Below are positions 10,261 to 63,822 of a stretch of 64,000 bases of DNA, piece after piece. Source of the stretch: Lobosporangium transversale (Eukaryota); NCBI RefSeq assembly GCF_002105155.1, contig NW_019029000.1:124001-188000 (forward strand), given 5' to 3'. Each line of letters opens with the position of its first letter. Position 1 is the stretch's first letter. The position numbers and the translations under genes are program-made. Below the pieces are notes generated by a model. That model searched no databases, was not told the origin of the DNA, and saw only the letters and a program-made list of their open reading frames with translations.

Positions 10261-10293
<33 letters not shown>

Positions 10294-24071: not shown

Positions 24072-24103
<32 letters not shown>

Positions 24104-27100
24104 TACTACAGCTTGAGGATGCTTTGTTCAATCTTAGTGCTTCTGCACATCAACGGGCGCTTCGGACTGCCTCGGAACATAGCTCCCATAAAGGAAACAG
24201 CAACCAAAAGACAGACCTTCATGATCAAACTAACTTTTCAATGACTCAGGAAGTTATTCGTGGCGACGGAAATGATAAATCAACAACCACCACCATCACG
24301 CGTAAATCCATTGAGCATCCCCAACGTGGTCTTACAGCTCATCCTGCTTGGCGTTCTCGTGAGCGTTGTCGCGCCAAGAAGCGACCCGCATCTCCGATCA
24401 CACCTATCAATTCGATTGATGTATCGACACCTTCATCCACACATGCTGGTATTCCTTCTGTATCCCGCAAGATAGGTGATCGGGCCGATACTTCGTTTAT
24501 TGGCCGATCTTCTCCCCCACATAAAAAGTCTAAGCGTCCATGGACTCATGCTTCGCCTCATGCACAAGGAGCAGATACGTCCGAGTCATTGTCTAGCTCT
24601 TCTAGTAAAAAGATGGCTACATCGTCATCAGCTCCATCGTTCGCCGAGTTTGCTACACCGGCTCTTCCAAGTCGCTCAACCATCACGGACCGCACCAGGG
24701 AACATCATGCACATACATCTCGCTTGACAGGAATTGTGGATCCATCTAGTCTACCTTCACCTTCACTTTCACCTACAGCAGCCACTCAAGGTGCCTTAGC
24801 AGGATCAGGTTCGACAATGTCTGCGGATGGCATGATCACACGAAGACGATTTAAAACTGCTCCAACTTCGTACCATCATGGACAAGAGAGCTCTGAACAA
24901 AGCGCGGTTACAACTGATGGTTTGGTGGATGAGGAAGAAATTTACATGAGTGATGGTGATGATGAAGAAGATGGGCAGGAAGAGATGGACGTAGAACGAT
25001 CACTTCAACATGCAGGCATACATCATACGCCTACACTTCTTGATCTGCCTAACTTGGTTGCAACATTTGATGCTTTGCCTTCAGGCCTTCAGTCGTACAT
25101 GCTTTTCCATCTTCTTCGACGATGCCCCGCCCCTACATTGCAGTTTGTAAGTTCTGTCATTCTTGCCACTATGAAGCAAGATTTTTTGGCTCTCTTGCCC
25201 GTAGAATTGAGTCGAAATATTCTCCGCTTCTTGGATGGGCGCAGTCTCTGCAAAGCAGCTCAGGTTAGCAAGCAATGGAGAGCAGTTGTTGACTCGGATG
25301 CTCATATTTGGATGCATCAATTCCAAAAAGAAGGCTTTGTGCTTGATGAGCACGAGGAAGAGGAGGCCTTTGCTCAAAGATTGGGGATCGATGGACATTA
25401 CGGAGTACGTCCAAGCTATCACGAGAGGAAACAGATGGCCAAGAGAAGAGCTGCTAAGGGTAAGGGACGTCCCAGTACAGCTGTGGTGCGCCAGACCGAT
25501 CTACCAGAATCTCCTCTGTACCCAAATGATGTAACAATGCTCGAAGAGGATGAAGTGGGAACTCCAATGGATGTGGTACCAGGACATCATGGATCGGGAC
25601 ACAAAGGTCATGGATGGGATAGTGATACAGCTGAAGAGGATGGTGATGGTAAAGAGGAGGAGACGTTCATGACCCCGGATGCTGTACCGCCTTCGCCCAC
25701 CACTAGCCATACTGGCCGATTTAACGATGTTGATTCCGAAGACGAAATAATGGAACAGGATCCAGTTGATGGTCCTTTCGGCCCTATGCCTCCATCGACT
25801 GCACATCCATATAAGGCCCTCTTTCGTCGCCACTGGATTATTCGCCAAAACTGGGCCAAAGGCAGAGCCAAGTACATTCAGTTCACAGGACACAGTGATC
25901 GTGTGGTCACATGTTTGCAATTTGACTCTGAAAAGATTATTTCAGGTTACGATGATCAATCTATTCATGTCTATGACACGGTTACTGGTAATCGTCTCAA
26001 GAAGCTTGATGGTCACGAAGGAGGTGTGTGGGCACTTCAGTACCGTGGCAACACATTGGTCTCTGGAGCGACCGACAGGACCGTCAGAGTTTGGGACATT
26101 GAGAAGGGAATTTGCACGCACACATTCCGTGGCCATACTTCGACAGTGCGTTGCCTACAAATTGTCATGCCGGTTAATGTCAACAAGGATCCTCATGCTG
26201 TTCCAAAGTATGAGCCAGAATTTCCCGTGATTGTGACTGGATCCAGAGATTCGACCTTGCTCGTATGGCGCCTTCCAGACCCAGAGTTAAATGGCCACAT
26301 TTCTCCAACGGATGGTTCATGGCTCTTGCATACTTTAGTCGGCCATACACAATCTGTCCGCGCTTTGGCCGCAGAAGGAAGCACATTAGTCTCGGGATCG
26401 TATGATTGTTCTGTCCGCGTTTGGAATATTTGTACTGGAGCCTTGGTGCATAGACTCCTAGGCCATACCCAAAAAGTATATTCTGTGGTCTTGGACACGG
26501 AACGCAATCAATGCATGAGCGGAAGTATGGACGCATTTGTTCGAATCTGGTCGCTCGAGGATGGCTCTTGTCTCCATGTTCTTGAAGGTATTTTTTTTTA
26601 TAGTAAAGCAATTATGCTTTAAATCCCTATGCCTACTTTTCTGTTATATTTGACAATTGTCCGACTGATAATTATTCATTCTGTATACTCTGCTCTCAAC
26701 CATTAGGCCACGGATCGCTCGTTGGTTTATTGGGACTGAACGCTAATCATCTTGTGTCAGCAGCCGCAGATTGCACTGTGCGGATCTGGGATCCTGCTCG
26801 TGGCGTTTGTCTGCGTGTCCTGGCCGCACATGCTGCAGCAATCACCTGTTTCCAGCATGATGGCAATAAAGTGATTTCTGGCTCGGATGGCAACCTTAAA
26901 ATGTGGGACTTTAAGACTGGAAAATTCATTCGTAATCTTTTGACAGGGCTTGGAAGTGTCTGGCAAGTCAAGTTTGATGAGCGGCGATGTGTTGCTGCGG
27001 TACAAAGGGCTGGAACAGGTGGAGCTAATAACGGCGCTACCTACTTTGAAGTAAGTTTATTGTCATTAGTCTCTTGTTCGATATGATATCTGGAAGATTT

Positions 27101-34226: not shown

Positions 34227-35784
34227 ATGACACAACGACCAAAGGCTACACGCCAGGAAACCTCCGAACTGGAAACACCACCAACCACTTTGAGCAAGAG
34301 ACAATTTCAACAGGTATGAAAAGCAAAAAAGTACATTTTTCTGATCTACTGCTGTTCAGTTCAGATCAATGCTCATAGCTTATTCCACTGTTTCAAGTAC
34401 CTGTCTGACCGTCTCTTGATCGCAAATCAACCTTTAGGTCAAAAATCTTACGAGGGACGATGGGCACTTCAACCTTGTTAGGTAGGATCAATAATTGTTG
34501 CCAAAAAAAAAAAAAAAAAAAAAAAAAACATTTGATCAAACTGAGCTATGTTATGCGCTGTGTTGTTTCTATTAAACTGAATGCTAAAAAAAAAAAAAAA
34601 AAAAAAAAATCCTTTTTTTTTTTTTCATTCAATGAATGAACAGGAATTTCCATCTTGCAGATGTGATCACTCTCTGTAATGGAGCATGTGGTGTGTTCTC
34701 CATTTTTTCGAATTTGCGTTATCTTATTACCAAAGATTCATATTATCTTTGGTTCTCAATGTGGAGTATTGCAGCAGGCTTCACATTTGATATATTTGAT
34801 GGTCGTGTTGCTCGTTGGCGAGAGACTCACTCCATTCTTGGCCAGGAAATGGACTCACTTGCAGATGTGGTACGTCATTTCTTTTGTTTGTTCAAAAAAA
34901 AAAAAAAAAAAAAAAAAAATACTTTTAGTGAATTAGGATAGAGGATAACCATAGGGTATCAATGAGAGAACAATTTCCATTTTCATAAACTCGTGTTCAT
35001 CATTCTCTCGTGGAACTGTATCATTAAAAGGACTGGACAGCTCAATGCATCATAATGCGGAATCAAGGAACAAGGAAGAAAACGATCGCTTCACCGCCAG
35101 GAAACAGAGCCAATAAGTCTATTGCGATACTATTGTCATAACAAGACATGTTTTGTGGAATCAGGAGCAGGGACAAAAGAATTTTAGGCATTTTTTGACG
35201 TCATGCTCGCATAAACACCCTGATGCCCAGCTGGATTTTAATTTCAACAAACATTAACTCACATAGAACCGAATATTTACTAATTCTATCACCTTTTTTT
35301 TATACTTCTTTCTGAAAGATTTCTTTTGGCGTGGCACCAGCTGTTTTAGCGTTTGTTTTGGGCATGCAGAGCATTCTGGACAATGTGGTTTTGGCTTGTT
35401 TCGTTTGCTGTGGAATTGCGCGCCTAGCGCGCTATAACGCTACGATTGCTATTCTCCCCCATGACCAAAGTGGGAAAGTTTCCTACTTTGAAGGGACGCC
35501 TATCCCAACATCTCTTGCTCTCGTTGCAATCCTTGCATATCTTACGTATACTGGGCAGATAGGAGAACGCTTGCCAGGAGGTCTTGTTGAGATCATACCC
35601 GGATTTTCCTTTCATGCTATCGTGATCTTGTATGGTATCAGTGGCTCATTGATGGTCAGGTAAAGAATAATAACAGTGTAAATCTTAAAAAAAGAAGGCT
35701 TCACGTCTTTTTTTTGGCGTTAAATTCTGATGTTTTCTTCTTTTCTGTCCAAATAGCAAATCACTCAAGATTCCCAAAATGTGA
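34227..35784 (+). CDS. CHO1: CDP-diacylglycerol:serine O-phosphatidyltransferase, 5 exons
   Basis: DDGHFNLVRNFHLADVITLCNG, FDIFDGRVARWR..LGQEMDSLAD, RLARYN, YFEGTPIPTS and SKSLKIPKM*. Confidence 0.96.
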
Positions 35785-39749: not shown

Positions 39750-42700
39750 CTAACCCGTACGCCAATGACCAATGGCGGCCATTGTTTCTTTGCATGAATA
39801 ATGCACCACAACTCCATCAGGGAAAACCGCAAAGACACTATTTGTATGAGTTGGATAAGAAAAACAAAACATTTAACGCCTGTTTCAAAGGATCTCAATG
39901 TAGAAAATAGTAAAAAGGCGACTTTTTTTTTACCTGTTCCCAATACGCTTATTGCATTTTGGACACATTCTGTCCTCTGTTATCTTAACCCTTCGTGATC
40001 GGTAAAATGTGAGTTGCTCTTGTGTCTATTGAAAAATGAAATGCGTATATCAGCTCCAGAACCACTTTCCACCTTTACATGATAAAGATCTCTTTTGCTC
40101 TCGTAATTACAAGTTCAATAGTAAGGCGTGAAAAATCGGAAATAATAAAATAATAAATAACAAAAAAAGGAAATACCTGGAGTCTTTCGGCCTTAAGTAA
40201 ATTTTTGACAATCATGTTCATATGTTTTGTCTTGTTACTTTCACGAATCGACTTCTCGAAAAACTTGTAAAGCTGATCCACGCGAGTTCCTGCTGGAAGC
40301 AAACGCAGAACCTGAACAATACATTATAGTAGTTATATAATCAGTCTCAAACGATCTTTTTTTTTTAAAAAAAAAATAAAATAAAATATAAAATAATAAT
40401 AATAATAATAATAAAGGTAATTCTCTCCAGGTTTCTCTATTTAAAAACACAATAATAGAATAAATTTTCCTTACAGCGGCTGGATCGATATGGTTGCCAT
40501 GTCGGGTGAGGATATCTAGAGCAGGTTCGAGCATCGGCTTCTCGCCTTTAGGAGGTATTAAGTATACTTCAAGTAGCATAAAATACACATTTTTGGTTGG
40601 ATTATTGCTGTCAAAGTTTTTAATGCAATATCTATTGAGAAAAGAAACAAGGGTTAAGTCATGAACAAGTAAATATTGAAGAGAGTAGGGGGGGTTTTCT
40701 TAATAAAAACTCACTCTTCTGCTGCTTGGAAATTATGTAATTTGCGCACATAAATGTTCAATGCCTGATCATGTTGCCCAATACGACTTAGTAAAATAGC
40801 TCTCTCCTCAAAGCACCCTAGAATTTATCTCCTTATCAGTAATCATCATTTTTCAAATAAACATGCCAGAAACATAATGTTTTAAGAACTAACCATCCAA
40901 TGGTAGGCGACTCAGAATGCGCTCGGCTTTATAAAATTTCGACTTGTCCAAGAATTGCAACAGTTTAACTCGTGTGTTCTTAACAGCTTCTATCATTTTT
41001 TTTTTTTTTTTTTTTTTTTTTGTGTTTGATAAGAAATGAGAATCATTCCACGACAATGTAGTCGATTGAAACATAGTACAATTGAATAATCTACAATCTA
41101 CCTTCATTTCCAGATGCCGAGTCGCGTTGAACTTGGGAGAGATATGATACAACAAGTGTATTGTGGAACTCTGATGTTTGATCCGCAAGCTCATGAATAA
41201 CATGCTCCAAATACATGGCACATAAATCCAAGGAGAGCCTTTCTAGGTAAGATATGACCTTGTACCTTGGCAGAGTATCAATCTCTGGCTCGTCATCAAT
41301 GAAGATCTGTAGTAGTCCATTATCAAAACATAACGTAAGTGTACAATCCTTGATTGTTACATTGAACCCTTGTCATAGTCATAGTGTGGTAACCTGATAA
41401 AACAACATCACAAGGAAAAAAAAAAAAAAAAAAAAAAAATAGCACTAAAGTCAACTAACCTTCATTGCAACAACCGGGTCTGATTCTAAAATCCAGGTTC
41501 CAAACTCTAAGATGAGATTAAAGTGGTCCGCACCAAGTCTCTGCAGGTAGTGGACTGTTGGGAGTACGCCCTGCATCTCTCCAGTGGTTGTATGAATGGA
41601 TTTAAGTAGCTCAAGTGCCTTGCGATGTTGTCCTTTGCCACGATAAAAGTCAACCAGCTCTTTATATTTCTGTATATTTTCAAGGAAAAAGCAGGTCAAT
41701 CACGGTGAATCGGTAATTTGAACTTTTGCGATGCCCAGTCCTAATAATGTAATACAGTGCACAATATTCACCTTATGTTTTAGCAACAAGCTTTCAGTTT
41801 CTTCAAGATTACAGTGATTTGTAACTCTTAAGAGAGATCCTACCAATCTCTCATTAGTCATCATATAGGACTTAAGAAGAGCGGTATCTACAATTTCCAA
41901 TACATGCAGCTTTGCTTCAATCTCCTTTTCCTGATCCTGATGGTTATATGAAAACGAGTCATTGTTTTGCTGCAACTTTTGAATTGATTTTTGAATCTTC
42001 TGGCGCTTATCAGCTAAGAATCTAATAAGGCAACCTACAGCCTCTTCGAGTTCTTTGGTGCCTACAATTAAAAAAGAAAAAAAAAATGGGAATACCTATT
42101 AACAAAAAAAAAAAAAAAGATATGCCGTCGCTTGGCGCCTTCCGCTCATAATTCTTCTTTTTGAGCTAAATGAGGTATTGCAATGCTACAACATACTCAT
42201 AATGATGGGCGGGGTATTTTTGGCATTCAGTGAATTCGAGTCCGTCTCAGTTAGTGTGGCCGAAGTGATAGCCCCAGATTCTTTATCCTTTGGTGGCAAA
42301 TGACCAGAAATAACTGCAGGGTAGAGTGCAATAACATCTACCGCAGGGACATCCAGCTCCAAAAAGAGGCCAAGGGCTTCCTCATACTGATGTGTCCGGA
42401 AAAGATGGTGCGCATACAGTTTCTTAATACGACCAAGAGTATCAACCTGAAGCAAAATCATAAAAGTTATGAACAGGTTAAACCAAAATATTATTCCAAC
42501 AAAAACTTTCCATTAGAGCCTGATAGAATGTAGCTATAATAGCTCTACTTACGTTCTCATCTAACAAAACAGGATCAATCTGATTTATAAGACTAATAGC
42601 TTCTTGGTACTCTTCCTTTTGAACTAACTCGTCAATCTATTTGTTTATAAAATAATAATAATGATGTTAAACGAGTAAGCCTTCAACAAACTCTATTATG

Positions 42701-44311
42701 CTCTCAACTATTATCTCATACTTTGGGTAGTAGTCAGAATTGCGAAATAGCATTTTCAGTACCTGTTGAGGGAAGCTGTAAGGAATCAAACGCCAGACTT
42801 CGCTATGACTCGCGATATAGAGGAGCTTTCCTTGTGTAAGGAGGCGTGCATGCGGTAAGTCTGCACTTTGTACGAGGGCTCTGGTCTCGATGTTTCTGAT
42901 CTCAATATGACGGGCCAGAATAGCAACAGCATAGGGATATGAGTATCCTAATTCCTCAGGTGTTCCTGACCACTCAATCCCATTTTTGCGTTTCGGCGTT
43001 CCGTCAATTCCAACAGATATGCTGGAATCTATCCAATAGGGAATCAGCATAAACAAATACCACCGAGAAACCAATGCACATGTTAAATACGTTAAATGTA
43101 AAGTTAATTGCATAATGTAATGCGGGGAAAACTTTTTTTTTTTTTTTCGCCAAATATTACGTTCTTTGCCAAGAAGAATTTCATCGTTTGGAAGACGTGT
43201 GATAAGCGGCTTCCCGGGTTTTGATCCGAAGCCCATGAGGCCCCCAGTAGCAATGGAACTGAAGCTATTCAATGTATTTAAGGTGCTCTCCAGAGTCGAT
43301 CCGATAGCTCCTTGGTTAGATGCAGAGCTAGGTGAGAACAAGGTCGTCAGAGCGCTCGTTTTACAGTCCATGAGAGCGTACTCGTTATCGAATCCCATAC
43401 AGAGGTTTTGAGTACCGACCCACTCCATTGTCCTGACTCTGTCTGGAATAGAGTACTCCTATAATCGCAATAGCAATAAAAGCAACAACCGCAAAAAAAA
43501 AAAATAAGGAATTAAAATCGACTCTGTTAAGAGGTACTGTAGGACAATAGAAAAAAAAAAAAGAAAGCTCTATACCTTAGTATCCATGAACTCACTATCC
43601 TGCCATGAAAAGACAATAATTTTCTTCCTGACCGCTACTGCGAGCCGTGTAATCACTTGTGGCACTGATCCATCCTGAAATTCGATTTTTGAAAACACAG
43701 AAAATAGATTGGCGCCTTTGGTTTTTCCAAGTTGCGTTCGCAATGCAAATGATTCCAGATCATGAAGATTCACATAGTTGTCTACGGTATACATGGTACA
43801 TATCATTAAAACTTGTTTCGAGATAGATAGACACACATAAAAAAAACTACTGCATTGTTACCAGACAACGTAACCAGGACACCCACTGCCTTGATTATAT
43901 CAATCTGTTCGATAGCCTTTTTTGAGAATGTTTTCAAGGTCTCCATGAGAGTAACCGATATGGCCTCATCCTTGCCTTGTAGAAATTTTAAAAAATAAAG
44001 ATACTGGTGAGTAAAAAAAAAAAAAAAAAGCATGGATGGCTGACTTTCTTCAACTGGTAGCATACCTAATGGCTCTCTCACCGAGTAGACCAATAATGCA
44101 CCATAGAATGTTCCCACATAGAGCTTGTCACCTGTATATGTTTATATGTCGAGATAAAAGTGAAATGTTAGGAACATGGAGTTATCTTGATATCAGCCTC
44201 AGTTAATTGTTAGAAAGTTCATTTGGTTATTGAATTACCTTGTGCAAAGATGGACTCAATCTTATGAGGAAGTTTCTCAATGACTGTATAGACTTTGAAA
44301 GCGTCGTGCAT
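39750..44311 (-). CDS. VPS39: HOPS subunit Vps39/Vam6, many exons
   Basis: Starts MHDAFKVYTVIEKLPHKIESI; CNH-like region LAVAVRKKI and YSYPYAVAI; IVDTALLKSY; ELVDFYRGKGQHRKALELL; C-terminal ITEDRMCPKCNKRIGNSVFAVFPDGVVVHYSC. Confidence 0.96.
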
Positions 44312-45022
44312 TGATTCTAATTTGCTTGTTTCTGTGATCTAATGCGTGAACTAATGGAAGAGTTGCTGGTATTGCTGAACTGGTTCCTGTCTAATATGGG
44401 GTCCCGTGTATTGTATACTCCCGCCTGTCACTATCCTGTTGCTCAACGATACCAAGAACGCCAGCCGCTCGTTGCAAAAAATTGGATTGCAAAAGGGATG
44501 TTAAAATGGACTCTGTGTTTGCCCTCAGCAGCACAGCATCTCCACATTCACGACAAACGCGCGCCGAAGGACTGTCATTTGATGTTCATGTGCTCAACTG
44601 CATTGACTATCTGACTATCACCATTGTAGAAGCGCTTGTGTAACACATGTTTCAATTACTGCATCCCATAAGCTAGCGTCTCCGGACCTTTGTGCCCATT
44701 ACAGCGACTTTGTTTAAGGTTCATTACCATGAAATCTCACCGAAATACTATTCTACGCTTACAGTAGACTTATAGGTTGTTCTGTTCGCAGAAGGAAGAA
44801 TTGTCCATTCAAAGACCTTTGGAACATTAGGCAGACATACTGGCTTTGTATCTCTGAGATATTCTGTAGACATAGATTAAATCAGAAAAGCATTAACTCT
44901 TACAATTGACAATCATTATGTTCTACAAGTTTTGGCTGTTAAAACCAATTCTTTTAACTGGATAGGTTCTACAAAAGATAATAAATATACGCTGAGTTAA
45001 ACAAAGGTAAAGGATTTTCATA

Positions 45023-46267
45023 TAGTGCCGTTCATCTAGTCACGAATAAAATTAGGGAAAAACCTTAATTTGTTGCGTTTTGGGGTCGTCGCAGCCACAT
45101 TGTTTATGAAGTGCTAATGGCCACCAAGTTGGTGTACACCAATCATCACTTATACAACTGCAGCATATCGAAGATACAATGGGTGCTTTAAATAAAACAA
45201 AGAGACACTTGCGCGATGCTCGCAAAAAAAAAAAGCAAAGCGCAGAGCTATCGAAGCAGCACAGAATTTGCAGATGGAAATCGTAGATGACTCAGCTGTT
45301 GTAGAGCTTAGCAGCGTTGAACTCGGGGAGGATTTAGTCAAACCTCAGCATATTCAGGACTGGGATGATATAAAGAACGATCCAGGGACTGAGGGAGAGT
45401 CGGGGGATGAGACAGAAGAGGAAGATTGGATTATGAGGGTGTGCTCCAACAACGATTTCTGGCAGAAACTGCAGCCCCAGATGCAAGAAGCAGCCAAAGC
45501 AGTGAAGACCACAAAAGCATATGCAGGAACTTCTCGATCTGCAATTTTCCGCAAGAATCAAAGACTTAAAACGGCTGCCATGGGCACACCATCTCTCACT
45601 TCAATTGGCTTTATTGGGATATCAAAGGAGCCTGCAGAGAGTTCTACCAATAACCATAATCAGCAACAAAGTATGTATAAATCGTTTCAAATTTATCATT
45701 CTGAACTTTTTTTTATTTTTTTATTGGCGAATACAATCAAAAGCATAGATTTATTTGGTATTATTGAAGCAATATCTCTTTTCCCAAAGGCTTTAAGCTC
45801 AGTGGACATCATCACCATTCGAAAATACGCAAGGAAGTGCTTTCGATATATGGACGCATATCGAAAAAAATATGTCTGGCCAAGTTGCTGAGCAACAAGT
45901 GAAAAAATATAGGTCTCATCGACGTATCCCAGCAAATTGGGGATTTAAAATTACAGTCCACTGAATAGTTTTTATATGTATCACACCCTTTATTGATGTC
46001 ATAGCAAATAAAGTTTAGCCAATCATATTTCGAGATTTATGTAGCGTTTTGCCCCTCACATATGAAAATGGTTCATTTTTTTTTGATGGTAGCTCAAGAA
46101 GAAGAAGTCATATCGACAAAAACCCTCTATTTTACCAAAGAGAAATGGCAAGTGAAGAAGAATTTAGAGCTACTTTTTACCTGAGATTGATAACTGGGGT
46201 GTTGCTCCTCTTCTCCCTCAGGCCAAATTTTTCTGAAAAAATTTTCGTGACTAGATGAACGGCACTG
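45023..46267 (+). mobile_element. Internally deleted IS630/Tc1/mariner-superfamily DNA transposon
   Basis: 24-bp TIR (C/T)AGTGCCGTTCATCTAGTCACGAA matches 23/24, with TA on both sides (45021-45022, 46268-46269). Transposase N-terminal piece YAGTSRSAIFRK and C-terminal IRKYARKCFRYMDAYRK..VKKYRSHRRIP are present; no DDE core seen. Confidence 0.9.
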
Positions 46268-46479
46268 TATATAAAAAAAGGTTACCGTATGATATGCTCA
46301 TACTCTGCAAGGCTGCCTTACACTTCTTAGTGGTATCTGGGACTTTTGCCTTTTTACCTTGCATTGGAAGAGTGGTTGGTTGCAGGGGTGAGAGCTTCAT
46401 TCTGGAGAGAGTAACTCTGGAAGATTTGGCGAAGAACTCCCACTGAGGCATTCTCCTCTAAATAATTATTAACATCATA

Positions 46480-47120
46480 CTCCGCTTCATCGTTTTGATC
46501 TCTATCGTCTACTCGTTACTCTTTTGTCATCCAAGCCAGTGAACAAAGACACTTTTATCAACAATATGGTCAAGCCGGGCATAGACGGACTGTTTGGGAC
46601 TTACCACACATCACTACGCACTGGACAAGTGGTGAAATCAAGTGCGCGGACGGCTACAAGAATGAAGAGAAGCTATAACTCGATCTTCATATCTCGATCA
46701 AGAAGCATTCTATTGTATTCCTGGAGGCAAAGCCTTCAAGTGGAACCGCAACAGACTACATGAATGATCGATTGATGAAGACTCTTTGACGGGATGAAGT
46801 TGGCCGTTGACGGCCTCTTGTGACGCGGTATCTATAAAGTGGTAGTTGATATCAGGATTTCGAGTCGAGACTTTTGTGATGACACTGGAGTATAAGGTAT
46901 CTTATCTACCAATCGGTATTGGGCCCTTTGATCTCATTGGATCGCGGTTCCAGGTTGGCAGTCCATTGACTGCTGCAAAATTCTTGCAATCAGCTCCAGA
47001 TACTGTCAAATGGACATTGGAAGTGGTTTATGAAGCCTAAGGAGAGCCTGTGAAAAAACATGTGGGTCAGAGACTCTTACCACATAAAGCCCATCAAAAT
47101 TAGCCCACGTCAGAAGTAGA
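46480..47120 (+). pseudogene. Second, more decayed PD-(D/E)xK-family remnant resembling 37099-39596
   Basis: NKDTFINNMVKPGIDGLFG vs NEDTFIDNLLKPILSAAFG; ISGFRVETFVMTLEYKVSYLPIGIGPFDLIGSRFQ vs GRGMEVDIYTLSLRAEALYQLDRLGTFGLIINPYQ; WVRDSYHIKPIKI vs WMRGTFDGKPVKL. Confidence 0.65.
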
Positions 47121-47179
47121 TTATTTCTCACTTGCTCCATCCAATCCTAGCCGCTTATCCCAGCGAAAAGCAATCCCCG

Positions 47180-47967
47180 CTGGGTGCTCCTGCCTGGTCT
47201 TGGGTTTTCGAACGTTTTTACTAGAAGCACCTTTCCCTTGTTATGATTCTTTCTATTGCATTAGAAAAAATAATATTTGTGTGCTCTCCTTTTGTAGTAG
47301 CGTCAACGAGCTTATTTGGACTGCTCGCAGACGCAACCCTCGTAGTGAGCCGCGTGTCCCAAGGAACCGTCTCTATCAGTGATCTCGAAAGCAGGATATC
47401 CACCTCTATGGGGTGAGGACGCTAGCATTGAAAGGTATCTCTTTAAACTGGAAAAAATAAAAGATCACCTTGAGCATTATAATGAGGAAAGGCTTGTTGC
47501 GAGACACCAATGGGCTCCAGAAGGGCTAGAGACGCTGAGTACAGTATCATTGCTGCTTGTCTTTTCAAGCTGGTTGGAAGATCAATTTGTAGAAAAGAGG
47601 CAAGTGCAATTAAGCTGTAATTGGGGCTGGACTTGGCCTGTTTGACTTTCATCTCTACATTAATCACTTGTATCATTTTTTTTTTTTGTGTTTATGTTAA
47701 TTATCATTTATTGAGATAGGCTTGCTCTAACCACATCTGTATATTATTTTCTAGGCATTTCCCGTTGGATATATTGTTGTAGGCGTCAATGAGTACTCAC
47801 ACTACCTTTCCAAGAAGCGTGAGAAGTTTGTTGGGCAGGTTGAGATTCGACGACTTTACTGCTCGAACTGCAAGGCATTCATGCATCGTGACAATATCTA
47901 CAACGTTGCTCGCGACTATCTGACCCATCAAGGGAGATCTCAGTATCTCCAGCCTGTTGACACTTAG
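47180..47967 (+). pseudogene. Fanzor/TnpB-like C-terminal remnant; last exon 47755-47967 is not in the ORF track
   Basis: PPLWGEDASIERYL..LEHYN, RRARDAEYSIIAACLFKLVG and VIGAGLGLF; then after AG 47753-47754: AFPVGYIVVGVNEYSH..FVGQVEIRRLYCSNCKAFMHRDNIYNV..QGRSQYLQPVD. Confidence 0.8.
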
Positions 47968-48154
47968 GTGCAGCGTGACGTAGTTTCAGAGTTAATTGTC
48001 CTATCTCACACAAATAAAAAAAAAACAAAACATATCGCTTTGATCTGCAAAGACTGGACAGCGCATTTAACATTCCTCCTGTTCCTCCTCTTTCCCTCCT
48101 CATCTGAATCACTCGATTCGTATAATACATTAATACATAAAGCCATATCACATC

Positions 48155-50641
48155 ATGGCACGATTTGATCTTAATAACCTACCCGAACATGAGGAGGATA
48201 TCGATTTCTCTGATATTGAGGAAAGATTCCAGCTCTCATTCGAAGAGGGCTTCAACAACGTCGTCGTTGTTGACAACATCCCACTCGTCGATGAGACAAA
48301 AGAGGAGAAGCTGATTCAGTTTTTGCGCAAGATCTTTAAGAATGTTGGCGAGATCAGAGATAATCACTTTGTCATGCCTAAGGCTGTCAATGAAAAGGGC
48401 AAGCTTATGAGCAAGGGGTAAAAAAACTGCTGTTACCACTTTGAACTCGTGAAATCGATGGCGACAAAATTTGCTTGGCGACAGTTTATACTCAAGTTTG
48501 AACGCGTTTTATTCCTATTTTCTATGCAGATTCATGTTTATTGAGTTCGAGACTGACGAACAGGCTTCTCTTGCTGTCAAATTAATCGACGGATTCAAGA
48601 TGGACAAATCCCACACTCTTGCTGTCAACCGCTTTACTGATGTTGAAAAATACACGAATGTTGAGGAAGAGTTTGTGCCTCCACCAGAAGAAGAGTTTGT
48701 TGAGAAGGTACGATGGATGATATTCTATATACTTTATTGAAGTCCAGGAAGAAGGCTTCAGGAAAGGTTTATAATTCTCTAAGCATTGAGTGGATGTCTG
48801 ACTCTAGTGCTTGTATTCTCTATTCTCATTTTGGGACAAAAATGTACTGGATTTTTATTTAATAACATTTACAGGAGCACCTCAAGTCCTGGTTGGCAGA
48901 TCCACTTGGACGTGATCAGATGGTCATTTACCGCCACAATGATGTTCAGGTTCTTTGGAACATGCAAAAGGAGCAGCCCCAGGTCGCTCACAGTAAATCG
49001 AATTGGACCGAGACCTATGTCCAATGGTCCCCACTTGGATCCTATCTCACTACTCTCCATGCCCCTGGTGTTGCTCTTTGGGGAGGCGAGTCCTGGAAGA
49101 AGATTATTCGCTTCAATCATCCTGGTGTTAAGCTTATTGATTATTCCCCTAATGAACGCTACCTTGTTACCTGGAGCAACGAGCCCATTGTTGTGCCTGA
49201 GGAAAACTATGATGGTCCATTCGGCCCTGAAGATGAGGGTAACCAGATTGTAATTTGGGATGTCAAGTCTGGCGCACTCCTCCGTTCCTTCCCCTCCATT
49301 GGACCTCAGGGTCCCAACAGCCGCCCTGCTGTCTCATGGCCTGTCTTTAAGTGGTCGCCCAGCGAGCGTTACTTTGCCCGCATCACTCCTGGGTCCCAGA
49401 TCTCTGTCTATGAAGCCCCTAGCATGGGTCTTTTGAACAAGAAGAGTATCAAGGTTGATGGCGTTGTCGATTTTGAATGGGCTCCTTCTGCTGGAGCTGA
49501 CAAGTCTGGTAAGCTTAGGGATGACATGCTCGCTTACTGGACTCCCGAAGTTGATAACCAGCCTGCTCGTGTCACACTTTTGAACATCCCCAGTCAGGAA
49601 ATTGTGCGCACCAAGAACTTGTTCAACGTCACGGACTGTAAGCTTCATTGGCAGAATCAGGGTGATTTCCTTTGTGTCAAAGTTGATCGCCATACCAAGA
49701 ATAAGAAGGTCACCTTCTCTAACTTGGAGATTTTCCGAGTTCGTGAGAAGGACATTCCAGTTGAAGTTGTTGAGGTGAAGGAATCCATCTTGGCCTTCGC
49801 CTGGGAGCCAAAGGGAGAGCGCTTCGCCATCATCACTACCAGTGATCCTAACTTTACGTCCGCTACCCCTGGATCTACCACACTGAAGACCTCGGCCAGC
49901 TTCTACTATTTGGACAAGGGTAAGGGCAAGGACACACTTCAGTCATTCAAGGTTATCAAGACTTTGACTGGCAAGTCATGCAACACTATCTTTTGGTCAC
50001 CTAAGGGCCGTAATGTTGTTTTGGCAACCCTCCGCTCGCAGACTGTGTGGGACCTCGAGTTTTATGATCTTGATTTTGAACCTCTGGAGTCTGCTGCTGC
50101 CAAGGTGCCTACTGGAGGTGAAAAGGACCCTGCTGCATACTTGCAGCTTCTGGCTTCGGGTGAGCATTATGGTGTGACAGATATTGAGTGGGATCCTTCG
50201 GGTCGTTTTGTTGCTACGAGTGCCTCGGTTTGGAGACACACGATGGAGAACGGATATCAGCTCTGGGACTTCAAGGGTCAATTGTTGTTTAAAGAGACGC
50301 TCGAGAAGTTTAAACAGCTCTTGTGGCGCCCTAGGCCCAAGACTTTGTTGTCGAAGGAGCAGATCAAGAACATTCGCAAGAATTTGCGTGAATACAGTGC
50401 ACGCTTCGATGAACAAGACATGGAGTCATCGTCTCAGGTATCAAGTGCTGAACGTCAGCGTCGCCGCCGACTGATAGAGGAGTGGGCTAACTGGCGCAAG
50501 CACGTTGAGGCAGAGCTCTCACAAGAGCAATCAGCAGCAGGTCAACAGGCATCTGCTGTCAATGCTGAAGATGAAGAAGCTGAGGAAGTGGATGAGTGGA
50601 TCGAGACAGTTATTGATGAGAAAGAGGAAATTGTTGCCTAA
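48155..50641 (+). CDS. PRT1: Translation initiation factor 3 subunit b, 3 exons
   Basis: RRM VVVDNIPLVDE..SKGFMFIEF; NWTETYVQWSPLGSYL; NLFNVTDCKLHWQNQGDFLCVKVDRHTK; QLLWRPRP. Confidence 0.98.
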
Positions 50642-51575: not shown

Positions 51576-52474
51576 GGCCATTGAGGTGATTTATTCTTCA
51601 GGGATAAACGAACTACAATTTACTTACCATGCACCTCCACACTTTTTTTTATCTGATAACAATGAACTTGGTATAACAGGTCATTCATATTGACGCTCAA
51701 CCTGCCGTACGCAAGCAAATCTTGCGTGAACTCCAGATCATGCACGATTGCAACCATCCCAATATTGTCTCGTTTTATGGCGCATTCTTGCATGACAGTG
51801 AGATTTCTTACTGCATGGAATATATGGATGTAGGGTAAGAAGAAAGGAAAAGAAAGAGAAAGAAAGGACTATAATGATACCCAAGTTCATCCATATGTGT
51901 ATTCAGTCGGGAAGCCTCTCCAAGATAGGGGATACGGGACACAGACATAGGGAATAAGATAATAAGATGCTAGGACAAAAGATGAAAGGCATGGAAAAGG
52001 AAATGGAGCTCAGGACATATGCTCCCGTACAGGGCTAGCTGATAGCAGGACAATAAGAGGACCGATAAGGACCAACAAAATTTATAGGTGAACATATCAA
52101 GTAGAAGAGCATCAAAGGAAGAAAGAAAGAAAAAAAAAAAAAAAAAAAAAAGCTAAAAGGACGTTGTGCAGTACGCTAGAAGGCGAGACTCATCGCTCCT
52201 ATTTTTTTTTACTATCATTAGAGCATTGGATGGTATTTGTGCAAAGAATGGAGCCTTCCCCATGGATGTCATTGGGCTCATCACAGTCTCTGTACTTAAG
52301 GGACTGAGCTACCTTTACCATAACCACAAAATTGTTCATCGAGGTACATGATACTCCCTTTAACCTGCTTTTTGGTTTTATTATAATATCTCTATTTACG
52401 AATTGAACCAATGGCAATCGAAGAGAGTGGGGAGCACAGTCACTCTACTGGAACCGGAGACTTATTGATGATCT

Positions 52475-52511
<37 letters not shown>

Positions 52512-52796
52512 TTTTATTTTGTTTTAATTTCCATATACAAGATCTCAAGCCTTCCAACATCCTTATCAATTCTACGGGAATGGTCAAGATTTGTGATTTT
52601 GGTGTCTCTGGACAACTTGTCAACTCAATTGCCAATACTTTTGTCGGAACCAGCAATTACATGTCGGTGAGTACATAGAAAGGATACTAAGCTACAGGAA
52701 TTCTGCATCCAAATAATAGCAATAAGGAAGGAGGTTGACTCTATTTTGGCTCACGCTTTTTTTCCCTCTTTCTTTTTTTCTTTCTCTCTCTCTTAC

Positions 52797-52840
<44 letters not shown>

Positions 52841-53414
52841 CCTGAGCGAATTCGTGGATGGAACTATGGTGTACAATCGGATGTTTGGTCGCTCGGCATT
52901 ACCCTCATGGAGTTGGCTCTGGGACGTTTCCCCTTGGATGCTGAGTGTAAATCGTTGACAATCTTGGAACTGCTTCAGCATATTGTTAACGAGCCCCTAC
53001 CTACCCTTCCTCGCGGTCAGTTCCCAGAAGACTTTTGCAATTTTGTCGACGTTTGGTAAGTTGGAGTCGAGGCAGTAAATGTCACGGATTACGAACAAAA
53101 GGAATAATGATTTACTTTTTTGTGGAGATGAGGACATTATTTCCTTTAGAACAAATGATCAGCTGATGAACATTTATGCTATCTAGTTTGGCGAAGAACG
53201 TTGAATCAAGACCCTCACCCGATATGCTGGCTGTAAGTCTTTCATTGTTAATTTGTCTTATTTATAGCGATACATATCTTTTTATTTTTCGATCTAACGA
53301 TGTCATTTGTCACGCAATGTTGTGTAATCTTACTAGAATCATGCATATTACCGCCGTGCAGAACAGGCGCATGTGGACATGGAGAAATGGGTCAACAGTC
53401 TGGTCAAGAAGTAG
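51168..53414 (+). CDS. STE7: MAP kinase kinase, STE7/Byr1/Fuz7 type, multi-exon
   Basis: Docking motif [76 protein letters not shown]. Confidence 0.95.
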
Positions 53415-56781: not shown

Positions 56782-57088
56782 AGCGTCCATCCATGCCATG
56801 CCCAAACTTATCAACGCTCCTGTTCTGTCATCAATGTCACATCCAAGTATCCGTCCCCATGCAACATGCAATACCATGCAGCTCTCTCTCTCTACACTCT
56901 TTCCTTTTTTCTTTCTTTCTTTTTTTTTTTTTTTTTATACTTTCTTTTCTTGTTCACCCCTACCCATCATCCTTCATATTCCTTCTCAATCCTTTGTTTA
57001 AATCTTCTCTTATACTGTCCTTCTTCCTCCCTCCATCCGTCCTTTTTGAAATATCCTCGGCTTCACTGTTGCTTGTTTGCTTCCAACC

Positions 57089-60000
57089 ATGGGTCAAAGT
57101 AACTCCACGCCTTCGCGGACCAGCAGGCGCTCCCGCTCCCGTTCCTTGCCCCAAAGACAGCAACACTTACAGGAGCACCATGCTTACACTCACTCGGCTA
57201 CTCCCACACAATCTACTATTCCTCGTGCTAATCGTGCTATGACTCTACCTCAGTCTCATGTCAATACCAGTTCACATGTAACTCCAACTAGAAACAATCG
57301 TAATTGTAGTAGCAATAGTCGCCATAATTGTAATAACAATAACAACAGCAACGATAATAGTAATTACAGCAATGACGGCGACCCATCCCTTTCACATCAG
57401 AACATTCAAAATCACATGCCCCAGTCATTGTCTCGATCTCATTCGTCACAACTACAACAGCAGACACACCAAGCACAACAGAACCAGAATCCTATGCAAC
57501 CTTCACAACCCACCCACCCACTTCCTGCTGGCTCTTCAGGGACTTCAGCTACAGCAATAACGCCCGCACGAGTTGTGCGCTCAACCACCCGTCGACGGCG
57601 ACTACTGGCAGCCTTCTATCCCTTGCTCTCTCGAAACAGAAACAGCAGAACCCCTAATGGCAATGACAGCAATAATGAGAATAGTAGTAGCAGTAACAGC
57701 AACAACAACAACAACAACAACAACAATAGTAGCAGCAGCAGGGGTAATAATGACAATCACAATAGAGGCAATAATAGTGCTGGCCATAGTATCAACAATG
57801 ATAGGCGTAATCCTGGCATCAATAACGTCAACAGTAGCAATGGAGGCGCTAATGGCAGTTTTACCAACATTAGAACAACTCAAGATAACAGAACTGACAC
57901 TCCTGGTGGTAGCAGCGTTGCCAACAACCGCCGACCTGCAGAGCCACGCACAGCCCAGTCCACTTCTCGCCATCGTCAGTCAGATCGTACGAGCCACACC
58001 CATTCGCCTCGACCAGCACAGACTCGTTCACAGACTCTCCAGGCCGTGTCTGGTACCCGTACACCCCGTGGTGTCTCTCGGGTGCGCCGGTACGACGAAC
58101 AGTCCATTAGGAGTTTCCGCTCCTCATCTAGTCGATCGTCCAGTCTCCTTGCACTCTCTCCCTCCTCAACAACAACAGCCGCCTCTTTGCATCCGCATGT
58201 CTTTCTGCATCACACTCATCGTCCTTCCTCGGAGCCTATGGAGGTTGACCTCGAACCAACAGCCGTTTCATACGCTCAGGCTGAGGTCGACTCTGGGCCA
58301 AGAGAAAATCACCGGTCATCTGACTTGGAAACTATGCCACACAATGGAGCCACCTCCGTCTCGGGCTCCTCCGGCGTCATGGACATGGGATATCCTTCTA
58401 GATTAGATACCAGCCTGTTCGTCGCTCGGTCAAATCCTCGAGTAGGCACATCCATTTCCTCAAGTCTGCTCCCAATACGACCTGACTCTGAAGATGAGGA
58501 CGATGATGGCTTTTTCTCCAGTGATGCTCATAGCCAACGTTGGAGGACAATGGAATATGAGCAGGCTCACAACTATGGACAGTTGAACACGTCGAGCGAC
58601 ACTGCCAGTTTACCAACACGCTATCGCCTCGACATTGCTGATCATGGGCTTGAAACAAATGAACCGACAGTTACAGCAACAAATGTGGGTTCAATTAGTC
58701 ATAGAGAGAGACGACCACGCGCATCACGTCCTAGTCGATATCCACCACCAGAAATGGTCGCGGACCTGATTCAACATCAAATTGTACAAGGAATAGCTGA
58801 AGCAGCAGCAACAACAGCAGCAGCCGGAGAAAATACGAGGACTTTATCACCTCAGAGCCCCAATGATATGCTTAATACTGATGCTACTGCAGAGTTGATT
58901 CCATCATCCTCTCCTCCTACTGCCACGATGACTAGTAACAATAACAACAGCAACAGCAATAACACCCCCGACGCAAGTCTTGAAGAAGCAGCCCCGATTA
59001 CAGAACGTAATGAGAATAACCTTCGTGCGGATATAACTTTGGGTGATGATGATTCGTTTGCTCATCGCAACTCAAGGGTCCACCGAAGACGACTTCGATC
59101 CTCAAGTCTTCGAGGATTACTTGGATTTCCACCTGCAGGCAGCTCTGGAAATAGCGAACGTGTGGTTGGTACGGGATTAGATCGAGGGTTTACACCTGTG
59201 CATCGTGAGCGAGCAGGAACTGGACGGTCTCTAGGTTCAGCAGGCTCTTCGGGATCGTTAGAGACATTGGACCAACGACGGCTTGTAGAGAGCCAGATTC
59301 CGTTCTTTGCGCGTCTCCTAGCGGAAATTGGGCGCAGTTTACGGGGACAGCAGGGCCAAGGTGATGATGGCGACCGTACTACGACAGATGGCAGTAGTGC
59401 ACTTGACGGATCTGATGGTATGGCCACAGCAGCAACATCTGCAGGAGCCACGTTTACTGTGCAGGCGACAATCAGAGAGAGGTCTACACTATCCGAGGCT
59501 ATGGGTATGTCACCTTTAACAAATGCTGAAGGCTCGGTCGGTCAGACAACAAATCCAGTTCGAGCAAGACAGGGGGCGACAGTTCGTTTCATTCAAATCG
59601 GTGGAAGTGGAGGGCTCGCTGCGTTCGGACAGAGACGACCGCGAAGCGAGTCTGTCACCTTAGGACAGGGTCAGGAACAGAGACAGGGTCAGGAACAGGA
59701 ACAAGAACAGAGACAGGGGCAGGGGGAGGAGCAGGAGCAGGAACAAGGACAGGGACATGGACATGGACAGGGGCAGAGGTCGGGATTAGGAATAGGATTT
59801 GGTCTGGGATCAAGATCAAGGTCCGGGTCATCACGTAGTGAACCATCAGAACCGTCTATGAGGGGCAGACGGGACGAGTTCACAGAGGCGATCCTTATGT
59901 TTTTGAACGACCCAGCCTCAGGAGCTGGATCAGACAATGAGTCACCGGAAAGTCCAACAACAGAAGGCAGTAATAGTAATGCGCCAAGAACGCGATCTCG

Positions 60001-60794
60001 AAGATCGCCTTGGGTTGTTTTTACACTTTCAGGAGCCTGTAAGTCCACGTCCCGCTCTCCCCTCTCCCCCCTCCCCCTTTTTTTTTTAAAAAAAAAAAAG
60101 AAAAAAAAAAAAAAAAAAAAAAAAAAGTTGAGGTTGAAGTATGTAAAAAACTGAGTTTTTTTATTTATTTTATTTTATTTTTTTTCGGCTTTTATGATAG
60201 ATCTCAGCAGCCTGCTGGCAGGCGGTATGGATGTTAACGATAGTGAAGGTCTAAGCTACGATGACTTGTGGATGCTGTCCAACTTGATAGGGCCAGCACG
60301 ACCAGTCACAACGACACAAGAGGCTATTGATGATGCAGGGTTCCATGTGGGTCAATTTGAGAATGCAGCACAAGGAATGCGAGGGTTTGAGATGCTTGGC
60401 GATGGATCCAAATGTTTAGTATGCATGAGTGATTATGAAGAAGGAGAAGAGCTGCGTGCATTACGTTGTAAACATGGCTTCCATCAAGCATGTATTGACA
60501 AGGTATGATTTATTTATGGTTTTCGTTTATTTATTTATTTTTTTGTGCTAAAGTGCTAAAACCACCCGTAGGTCTGAGCCAGATAAGACTATTGTCAGTT
60601 GGTCCAACCTTTAGTCAGTTTTGATGTCATCTATTCTAACGATTCTCTTTCCTTTCTCTTGATTATCGTAGTGGCTAACTACGGGTGCCAACAAGTGTCC
60701 TGTGTGCCGTGCAGCGGCTGTTGAGCCTTCAACCACGAACACCCCCGTAGCAACAGCAGCAACTAGTGCAGGACATGACTCAGTTTTTGAATGA
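57089..60794 (+). CDS. Large disordered protein with C-terminal RING-H2 (E3 ubiquitin ligase), 3 exons
   Basis: Starts MGQSNS; SYDDLWMLSNLIGPARP; CLVCMSDYEEGEELRALRCKHGFHQACIDK|WLTTGANKCPVCR. Confidence 0.9.
59663..59775 (+). repeat. Coding 6-bp-unit repeat encoding GQGQEQRQ/EQEQ/GHGH
   Basis: Degenerate GGACAG/GAACAG units within the RING-protein ORF. Confidence 0.7.
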
Positions 60795-61329
60795 AGACAA
60801 TAATCATTTTGTGTTTTTTTTTTTTTTTTTTTTTTTTTTTGAGGTGCCACGATGCTCTCAAATATTTTTATTAATTCAATTGGATGCCAGATGATTGCAT
60901 AGTGGCCGCATGGGCGGGGTGTTTTTTTAATATTAATTTGTAGATGACAGTTTATGTTTGTGTGCACGTAATGCTACTACACATTGACGAGAGCTTGCAG
61001 TGATTGGCGTTAATAATGACATGATGGAAAAGAAGACATTTTGTACACTGGATGTGCATTTGTTGCAATAGTGAACCTCAATTAGGAGAAAGAGGCATTG
61101 ACATATGTATTGTGTATCATTCACACGGTCCCAACTGTGTGAGGGAGTGGTTGAGTGGTACAGCTGTCCTTAATATTTTGCACACTGAAACCAGGGTAAC
61201 TTGGTTAGATACTTCTTGTTCTTCATCCATTCCATTGTTCATTTTATTCCTTCATTCTTCATTAATCGTTTTGATCATCCATTTGTCTTGTGACCCAATC
61301 TAACTTAATCCATTCTATCAAGGGTGACC

Positions 61330-62284
61330 ATGAGTCTCCCGCGCTTCCTCCGTGGGTTTCAAAGGAAATCCTCGTCTTCTACTGCCGTTACGAGCGCATC
61401 TGAAATTGATCCTCCTCGTCCAATCTCCACCGCTTCCACTTCCTCGTCTTCCTCGTATTGTGATGCCCTTGGATTTCCTATACCTGTCACTACGACCACA
61501 TTCACTCTTCTCTCTTCGCTGTCATCTTCGCCTGCATTTGCACCTCTTCCTGTAAATCCACCTGTTTTATCATCAACGGTCCAAGCTCCCACAGGGATGT
61601 CGCTCTATCCAATGCCAATGGATATTGCTTTATCCTCTGCCTCTGCCTCTTCGTCTTCTACTTCCCTTTCCCCTTCACCTGCTCCTTCTCCCTCACAGCC
61701 AATCCTGATGAACAACCATATAAACATCACCGGCTCCCCTGTAGTCACAAGTCAGCCAACGTTTGGTTCTAGGACCAGGCGGACATCTCGTTCTTCCTCA
61801 TATGTCTCTGCCGCTGAAGAAGATCCAGTGATGCTCTCTACATCCTGTCCTCTATTTACCTCTCCGATCCCTTTTAATACAAACGAACCAGTGCCTCCAG
61901 TGCCTGTACCAATTGTCAACATAACCTCTGCTGATTTCAGCAATATTAAGAACAATGATATAGCCACGACAAAAGTCGTTGGTTTTAAGATGATACCCAT
62001 TGATCCGGTCTCTGGAGCAGAGACGCAGGATATGACAGACTCTAGAGTGATTGAGAGTCGACCGGTAGAAAAAGATGGGAGCACCATCCAGACTGAGTTA
62101 ACTAAAAAGCCAAGTGAACAACCAAGTCAAGAACCTGTAGAGATAGCCGAAAATGAGGATGATACTCAACTCATGGGCCTGCAACAACAAAGACCATTAT
62201 TAGTTGTATCGGTAGTCAACGACTCGTCCAAAAATAATCGGATCCATTCCGATGCTGCTACAGTTACGACTGCCACTGCCACTG

Positions 62285-62323
<39 letters not shown>

Positions 62324-63166
62324 ATACTAATACTAATACTATGGCTACCACTATTACATCTGATCCTACTACTGCTGATTCTGTTGGTTCAGAAAGCAGC
62401 AATGAGACAGCGCCTTCAAAGGTGATTCGTCCATCCTATCGTCACATGCAGGGACATGCCACCAGAACGGTTTCCACATCTGATATGCCGTCTTCCTCCA
62501 ACACACAACCAATGAGACAACATCGACCACAGATTCCTTCTCCAACACGATCCAGATCCTTCTCCAATTCACATGTGGGGACTGGTTCCTCTTCATCTGT
62601 TGTCAAACCTGTGTCGATTCTCAAGAACAAACCAAAGTCCATTTTACGTACTCGTTCACGATCGGGGGGTAGTTATAGTAGTAGCAGTAGTAGTCCAGCA
62701 TTCGTAGAGACATCAGGTGTTGGCGGTGCTCTTGCATATTCAAATACACATTTGCATGATATGTTTATCTCTGCATTTCCAGCACCGCCTAAGCACAGCA
62801 CAAATAGTTACAACAACAGCAGCATAGCCATTCGTACGTCTATTTCTTCAGACACGTCGTCCATCTCACGATCATCACTGTATTTACTACAAGATCCTAT
62901 GGCGACACCTCCTATGAGCATACCAACGTCTCCTCCTTTATCAGTGGTAACGACCTCTACGACATCAAACACAAGTGCGAATGCAGCAACGGGGACAGCG
63001 ATGATAGGGGTAGGATTAGGCATCGATACAGAGCGACGAGAAGAGTCTGCCAAGGGCTTTTCAACAGAAGGTGTTTTAAAGACCAGCAGCAAGCCAACAA
63101 TAATAACAAGCGGTCTCCATAGACAACGGCGGGTATCTGTCAAAGAAGTGGGTGGTCCTGTTTCAG
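61330..63166 (+). CDS. First exon of a Ser/Thr/Pro-rich protein that probably continues beyond the window
   Basis: About 610 open codons from ATG 61330, ending at CAG|GTAAG (63166/63167); contains an (ACT)n poly-Thr tract. Confidence 0.65.
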
Positions 63167-63822
63167 GTAAGAAAAGAAAATAATATATATTTTTGAGTTT
63201 AGAGAGAGAGAGAGGAGGGAAGCACACAGACCACTCAGGACGCGTAAAAGGAAATGGTGGTACAAAAGAAAATCGCAAGAGAGACACGGGTATTTTTTTT
63301 TTTTTTTTCCTCCAGTCGAGTCAGTCCAGGAAAGAGAGAAGAAGAAAGGGACAAATATTCCATTCACATGAAAGAAAAAGAAAAGAAGAAAAGAAGGAAA
63401 AAAAAAAAAAAAAAAAAAAAAAGAGAGATGCGGAAAGAAATGAAAAAGCGTGCTAAAAGGAGAAAAATGCAGGTGTTGAGAAATCAATGAGCATTGAAGC
63501 TCTTTCGCTTTTTTATGGTCTGCATGGTAAATTAACAATTAAGGAGTTGCAAAAGAGACTTAGAAAGCACTAGGGGTTTGTTTTTTTGTTTTATAAGAGA
63601 TTTTCTAATACAGATTTGTTTTGGAGTTTAAAATATTCATATTCATAATATGTCGAGTGAATGAGCATTGGGATGAGATGGGATGGGATGGGATGGTGTG
63701 CAACAGCACCGAACAGGGATTAGCGATTTGTAGCAGATTAAAAAAGATATGCATATGGCTCTTTTTTGAACAAGCCATTCTCTCTTCCGCAAGCTTACCC
63801 CGAAAGAAGATGATGGGGAGAT

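Follow-up and report, generated by a model that had tools for sequence, protein, structure and literature searches.

Fanzor1 is among the closest described systems, and several structures of it are available (SpuFz1, PDB 8GKH and 9CEU; GtFz1, 9CER; PpFz1, 9CF0). According to the accessible parts of Saito 2023 (PMC10432273) and Yoon 2023, the omega-RNAs of Fanzor1 occupy the same 3′ position as the folded stretch that follows the genes described below. In the accessible part of Yoon 2023, DPG at RuvC-I is given as a Fanzor fingerprint, which is found "near exclusively" in Fanzors. The two protein subfamilies dealt with here, A and B, are already catalogued, since both have entries in the supplementary tables of these papers: three proteins of subfamily A and at least P0141 and P0157 of subfamily B are filed as FZ1 in Supplementary Table 1 of Saito 2023, and the subfamily-A protein P0010 is among the Fanzor HMM hits in Table S2 of Yoon 2023.

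In Mucorales, ROr-4, PBl-3 as well as MCi-4 are MuDR-associated Fanzor1 elements, as described in the MuDR-type section of Bao & Jurka 2013 (PMC3627910). Like the family described here, they combine a fungal Fanzor1 with a Mutator-type element bounded by terminal inverted repeats. In that section, however, they are said to have no transposase and to be flanked by 9-bp duplications, whereas two of the loci that we recovered from metagenomes (L001 and L024) carry a MULE/SWIM transposase gene in divergent orientation and we detected no duplication. The section on MuDR-type fungal Fanzors does not mention a FEN1 head.

The 5′ nucleases FEN1, Exo1 and XPG (PDB 5V0A, 3Q8K, 4Q0R) also have to be considered. 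The head of the proteins studied here is similar to them in fold and in acidic residues, but it is only 15–19% identical to them in sequence and it is fused to a transposon RuvC nuclease.

The window, that is the whole stretch of 64,000 nucleotides of Lobosporangium transversale DNA that was analysed, contains two decayed members of this family. We read the one at 47 kb as a dead 3′ fragment of a FEN1/Exo1–Fanzor1 fusion gene, together with the likely right end of its MULE-type carrier, the proposed roles in guided cutting and end trimming belonging to intact relatives; we give this reading a probability of about 85%. The features are the following.

9391–11565, plus strand: 11-kb copy, a decayed subfamily-B FEN1–Fanzor1 gene with its FEN1 head at 9391–10190 and large internal deletions (tblastn, tree).
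47354–47687, plus strand: penultimate exon, in decayed form, of a Fanzor1 gene of subfamily A, from the interval between RuvC-I and RuvC-II (profile columns 847–965, tblastn pieces, paralogous contigs over 47400–47644).
47688–47754, plus strand: intron, with its acceptor AG at the conserved position of the family; the donor is the best guess of the aligner only.
47755–47967, plus strand: remnant of the last exon, with the RuvC-II Glu (47791), the second CxxC (47860–47871), the RuvC-III Asp (47890) and a premature stop.
47956–48008, plus strand: probable right end of the element, consisting of the 3′ strand of a predicted guide-RNA hairpin and the terminal repeat (matrix from relatives, nhmmer, covariance model, spacing).
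48155–50641, plus strand: host gene, which we presume to be that of eIF3b (Pfam eIF2A, E 9e-41); a neighbour outside the element, whose 3′ end is unmapped.

The original prediction had placed at 47755–47967 an ATG-less open exon that carries the Glu and Asp codons of RuvC-II and RuvC-III and a CxxC, and this is present as described; the distance of about 190 bp that it gave between this exon and the start of the eIF3b gene also holds (187 nt from the stop to the ATG at 48155). The word "open" is right in that the frame is unbroken, but the exon is not intact: in-frame deletions have removed the first CxxC as well as five residues that followed the final Asp, so that two of the four Cys zinc ligands are kept. 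Fifty-seven residues follow the Glu in the remnant, against 100–170 in most intact relatives. The acceptor AG that precedes the exon lies directly 5′ of the homologous codon in all 51 of the metagenome loci in which the motif could be located (54 were fetched).

The homology extends upstream of this exon. A profile (A1) was built from 72 relatives, picked by hand from 124 for their length and coverage, and aligned in a way that allows frameshifts and introns. The alignment covers 47354–47964 and scores 196.5 bits, while 30 shuffled sequences score 16.9 bits or less. It reveals frameshifts near 47399, 47514, 47615 and 47644 and a stop at 47661. The homology thus starts at 47354 rather than at 47180, the start proposed initially, because the alignment of what lies upstream does not exceed the level of shuffled sequences (56 of 60 and 140 of 200 shuffles score as high). 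As nothing in that region beats shuffles, about 940 of 1,186 residues are missing, including RuvC-I. A degraded RuvC-I near 47291 (FVVASTSL) was considered and rejected: its position is collinear, but its score is that of shuffled sequences. We looked for a FEN1 head or a transposase upstream of the remnant and found neither, and the 64-kb window contains no MULE piece. Two frameshifted pieces upstream of the last exon had been described as similar to a bridge helix. One of them, RRARDAEY, does map onto a long helix in a structural model of P0010, but the other, VIGAGLG, falls on a strand (residues 1021–1026). The remnant has four frameshifts and one stop, no RuvC-I, two Cys out of four and a scaffold that is mostly deleted, unlike a functional Fanzor1. 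Judged from its sequence, it represents the 3′ end of a dead Fanzor1 gene that belongs to a Mortierellaceae family, and in itself it is ordinary transposon debris.

The element probably keeps its right end at about 47975–48008, to judge from the motif found there, so that the feature likely runs on to about 48008. A matrix built from the ends of 15 relatives alone, and run over both strands of the window, has its best match at 47975 (21.4 bits; the runner-up scores 6.7). An IUPAC version of the end pattern, matched by none of 100 shuffles, was drawn up with the window in view and is not a fair test, while the matrix is. The nhmmer match at 47975 is modest (E 0.048). Overall, this end is well but unevenly supported, since a covariance model ranks this match second (E 0.22); its first match, at 52041–52083, lies inside an intron of a kinase gene and we consider that it occurs by chance. 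Rfam has no match over 44000–49000, and the segment 47940–48110 does not fold better than shuffled sequences (z 0.36).

The last conserved coding motif is separated from the end motif by 31 nt in the window, compared to 210–688 nt in 19 metagenome loci. This short spacing implies that the tail of the protein and the larger part of the predicted guide-RNA scaffold were lost in a deletion. The deletion that joined the end to the coding part probably measures at least some 180 nt. The loop of the hairpin seems to be the source of the stop at 47965 (compare locus L030).

It could be objected that the exon encodes a peptide of some non-RuvC zinc-finger family, or that its frame is fortuitous. The 70-residue peptide alone indeed matches no Pfam family, and among PDB sequences nothing is significant, the best match being ribosomal protein eL42 (E 0.12 or worse). 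However, when longer proteins are searched with this peptide, seven of nine candidates turn out to be related (best E 1.5e-13, 62% identity), and five of these seven pass the cut-off of the Pfam family Cas12f1-like_TNB; the homology is collinear over about 190 profile columns, the intron acceptor is conserved and paralogous contigs exist. The relatives, the profile alignment compared with shuffles, and the Foldseek matches of a relative (see below) refute this objection, which we consider practically impossible.

Another possibility is co-option of the remnant, in which the open exon of 70 codons or the right-end motif would act on eIF3b, for example as a promoter element. An unbroken stretch of 70 codons has a probability of only about 0.04 at the density of breaks seen in the upstream piece. 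The right end, near 48008, lies about 100 nt upstream of the start of a spliced eIF3b contig at 48105 (run X5), the end motif being about 100–130 nt before that start, and it contains what we take to be a CRE-like core. Against this, the exon has no ATG, the exon upstream is broken, zinc ligands were lost in frame and the stop was made by the deletion. The survival of the end motif requires no new function, because this motif is the best-conserved stretch of the family anyway. We therefore regard co-option as very unlikely, and we retain the reading of the remnant as a dead 3′ fragment.

The nature of the complete gene is deduced from the intact relatives. A search with one relative of the exon peptide returned 190 relatives, 120 of which are listed; among the matches listed, the genera of the organism-named relatives are, as we assume, Mortierellaceae. 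None of 82 pattern matches in viral contigs is a relative. The intact proteins are about 1,150–1,300 residues long and consist of a head with the FEN1/Exo1 fold followed by a Fanzor1 body. Foldseek, run with the model of P0010 (pLDDT 87), has SpuFz1 and GtFz1 structures as its top five matches, followed by Exo1, PpFz1 and FEN1. Residues 2–297 superimpose on Exo1 (Z 22.8, rmsd 2.6, 270 aligned residues), and residues 445–1122 on PpFz1 (Z 18.2, rmsd 4.0, 484 aligned residues). The body of the relatives is thus similar in fold to the Fanzor1 structures, which supports the identification of the remnant as a Fanzor. The head is also detected by sequence, with E values from 1e-10 to 3e-7 in profile comparisons with Rad2, FEN-1 and Exo1; the XPG Pfam cut-off is passed by only 2 of 25 relatives, and 19 of 25 have an E value of 0.05 or better.

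The RuvC catalytic residues are conserved in the alignment rows that cover them (Asp in 70/70, Glu in 63/66, Asp in 66/66). The Glu of RuvC-II is at the rearranged position near the zinc finger, seven positions before the first Cys, as in Fanzor1 according to Yoon 2023 (Glu 1063 and Cys 1070 in P0010). The C-terminal motif of Fanzor1 given by Bao & Jurka, D-x(125,275)-[TS][TS]-x-x-C4 zinc finger-RD, is found as well, with 188 residues between the Asp and the Thr in P0010; across rows, its residues are kept in 60/66 (Thr), 65/66 (Ser), 64–66 of 67–68 (Cys), 67/67 (Arg) and 66/66 (Asp). The WED motif is TDG, as in Fanzor1, in 50 of 72 rows and TNG in 13. The seven acidic positions of the FEN1 head, whose choice is based on FEN1 motifs as we remember them, are kept in 23/23, 33/33, 36/36, 37/37, 34/40, 41/42 and 44/45 rows (85–100% of the covering rows). 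Seventeen rows cover the full set of 14 positions, and all 14 are kept in 15 of them. Three relatives (P0027, P0032 and P0039) have in common a Lys at the position of the RuvC-II Glu and a Gly at one FEN1 acidic position; judging from these substitutions, they possibly form a nuclease-dead, domesticated branch.

Besides the length and the head, with its conserved acidic residues, and besides the fact that the 47-kb copy is a dead fragment, the main difference from Fanzor1 is at RuvC-I. All eight subfamily-B rows have DPG, but the 70 subfamily-A rows have DLG (52), DGG (7), DAG (5), DPG (5) or DMG (1). We counted the absence of the DPG fingerprint from most of subfamily A against the Fanzor1 reading. 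We treat DLG as a variant of the fingerprint, because Yoon 2023 describe the latter as near exclusive and because the table of Saito 2023 files subfamily-A proteins as FZ1.

Three loci were tested for the integrity of the fusion gene with introns of any phase allowed. In L001 and L024, a single spliced frame stays open between the FEN1 core and RuvC-III, and its four introns have the same phases in both, while L028 requires one frameshift. When introns are allowed between codons only, 2 of 10 loci are clean and the other eight have one or two marks, several of which are at introns that split a codon.

The elements that carry these genes were examined in 54 metagenome loci, retained out of 218 pattern matches. 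Among the 22 loci that include sufficient DNA upstream, 8 have terminal inverted repeats of 22–29 nt, which are clear in 7; many other loci begin inside the element. On the opposite strand, L001 and L024 contain transposase pieces with a SWIM match (E 8.9e-7, which passes the cut-off in L024) and MULE Pfam matches that are under the curated cut-off (E 6e-4 and 9e-3). Of the 17 loci that extend to the start of the gene, 12 contain MULE-like pieces. A MULE-domain transposase with a SWIM finger and terminal inverted repeats, which define a MULE-type element, are thus found with the relatives. Three elements (L001, L002 and L003) are more than 99.9% identical between their repeats and have different flanks, which suggests recent movement, although the samples are related and the assemblies may be collapsed. 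None of the seven complete elements is flanked by a target-site duplication of at least 4 nt, in metagenome assemblies that can join the flanks of different copies; by eye, their flanks have no 5′ motif in common. A second, diverged MULE-like transposase is immediately adjacent to the L002 element at its right end (L002:7650–8700, L037:207–2760), and L013 has a left flank similar to the end of an L032-type element. Given this neighbouring transposase and this flank, the elements may insert beside or into one another.

In the interval from the stop codon to the element's end, there is a conserved stretch of about 110–170 nt, whose motif is found in 35 of the 45 loci with a stop. It is predicted to form a short hairpin, in which four of six pairs show compensatory changes, and a second, long hairpin that closes on the terminal repeat (18, 15, 16, 14, 12 and 12 of 19 positions paired, in an ungapped count). 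The 3′ region folds with z values from −0.9 to −7.1 in nine loci. The location in an inverted-repeat element, with a 3′ region that is predicted to fold and that stops at the repeat, is a further likeness to Fanzor1.

The 11-kb copy belongs to the other subfamily, as had been proposed. BLASTP finds no match between it and the 47-kb remnant. In a FastTree tree, each remnant is placed inside its own subfamily with a support of 100; this tree has 41 rows (32 of subfamily A and 10 of subfamily B were chosen, three without the anchor motif were dropped, and the two remnants were added). The two subfamilies are nevertheless homologous, with a probability of 98.8% and 24% identity between their profiles. 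The 11-kb copy is matched by P0158 and P0157 in tblastn (E 1.6e-34 and 1.1e-38, respectively) and has 17 relatives among cluster representatives, and 9 of the 10 clusters of its relatives that were looked up have members from Mortierellaceae genera. A Lys replaces its RuvC-II Glu. Whether full-length relatives have an N-terminal PIN domain was one of the questions raised initially: those of subfamily B also begin with a FEN1-like head, so that the PIN/FEN1 domain is present in both subfamilies. This head is decayed but present in the 11-kb copy, and absent from the 47-kb remnant.

The presence of two subfamilies had led to the suggestion that the family was large and formerly active in this genome. 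The copies were counted in contigs assembled from three DNA runs (X1, X2 and X3, of which X1 may be the source of the window), which detects only DNA that is about 80% alike. Three extra contigs map on 47400–47644, over 168 nt (29 differences, 4 gaps), 77 nt (8 differences) and 41 nt (6 differences); by eye, their loose ends run on in codons typical of the family. Near 47514, one of the frameshift sites of the window, two of them have an additional base. No paralogous contig covers the last exon in these runs. A further run, which is presumably of RNA, has no contig over the remnant, and this carries no weight as to expression. Several copies therefore exist, but with only two to three paralogous pieces of at least 80% likeness, the idea of a large family in L. 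transversale is unsupported. That the family was formerly active can be inferred from the decayed copies in the window and from the near-identical intact elements at different metagenome sites.

How the two nucleases might work together can be proposed for the intact elements. The MULE transposase would excise and insert the element. The RuvC part of the Fanzor would cut the empty site left by excision, guided by an RNA from the 3′ end, the folded 3′ region being the putative omega-RNA, and homologous repair would then copy the element back; these steps are extrapolated from known Fanzor1 biology. The FEN1 head would resect the 5′ ends of the break, pushing repair toward homologous recombination. 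We rate this role of the head just short of an even chance. The general proposal, according to which Mortierellaceae MULE transposons cut and resect, an RNA-guided Fanzor1 and an active FEN1/Exo1 nuclease processing their own breaks to favour homologous repair or homing, is tentative, and we would put it somewhat below even odds. The 47-kb copy is incapable of any of these steps: its head, WED, REC and RuvC-I regions are gone, as are the tail, one of the zinc knuckles and the bulk of the RNA scaffold. Flaps, gaps and RNA–DNA hybrids are substrates of FEN1/Exo1 enzymes, and this would also be compatible with a function of the head in transposition or RNA processing, such as the trimming of flaps or gaps at MULE sites or of the 5′ end of the guide RNA, instead of the resection of Fanzor cuts. 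The head does occur in elements with a MULE-like transposase, and the conservation of its active site leaves the substrate unspecified. However, in both subfamilies, the head is fused to the Fanzor and not to the transposase, and it is kept in L008-type elements, in which only the 3′ part of a transposase was found. We consider this alternative possible but rather doubtful, and resection of the cut made by the Fanzor is the function that we favor.

The two-nuclease design appears to be undescribed, although the family itself is catalogued. In the freely accessible papers that can be searched, there is no description of a FEN1, XPG or flap-endonuclease head on a Fanzor. The accessible text of PMC10432273, PMC10711439, PMC10530073, PMC10691335, PMC11423790 and PMC13565253 does not mention it either. 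One preprint refers, in its accessible part, to "Fanzor flap endonuclease homologs" in animal viruses, and does not describe a fusion there.

If both active sites work, these proteins are a natural case in which a programmable cutter is fused to a 5′ resecting nuclease. Genome engineers build fusions of this kind by hand. The family would then also bear directly on the idea that, in eukaryotes, Fanzors aid cut-and-paste transposons by putting them back into the sites that they have left. Since the family comprises two or more deep subfamilies and some members seem to have moved recently, an intact protein and its predicted guide RNA should be at hand: L001 and L024 are complete and apparently intact elements, with a transposase, the fusion gene and a predicted guide RNA.

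Last, we note several other features of the window. A multi-copy element at 45015–46275, which we take to be Tc1/mariner-like, is closed by 48-nt inverted repeats with TA at each end and contains a decayed transposase-like frame; the nearest family-bearing clusters of this frame in the Atlas are DDE_3, with a score of 0.84 that is a lead only. It was considered as the carrier of the remnant and rejected, its own repeats closing it 1.1 kb upstream. Between this element and the Fanzor remnant, at about 46500–47040, there are frameshifted coding-like pieces, which presumably come from a decayed gene of the restriction-endonuclease fold that is common in these fungi. In run X7, every difference from the window over 44800–48600 is C>T or G>A, which is the pattern of a bisulfite library; the conversion affects 39/39 C and 24/24 G in the remnant, including four CpG positions, and 62/62 C in the repeat element. 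As this conversion is complete, majority methylation of CpG is not seen on these transposon pieces. Long open frames at 57050–60154 (1,034 residues) and 61309–63183 (624 residues) have no Pfam match. The other host genes identified with Pfam encode a transcription factor with KilA-N and ankyrin domains (11886–14540), an F-box/WD40 protein (23908–26622), a CDP-alcohol phosphatidyltransferase (34636–35663) and a Vps39-like protein (41700–44141), and the kinase gene mentioned above, read by eye, is at 51680–53240.
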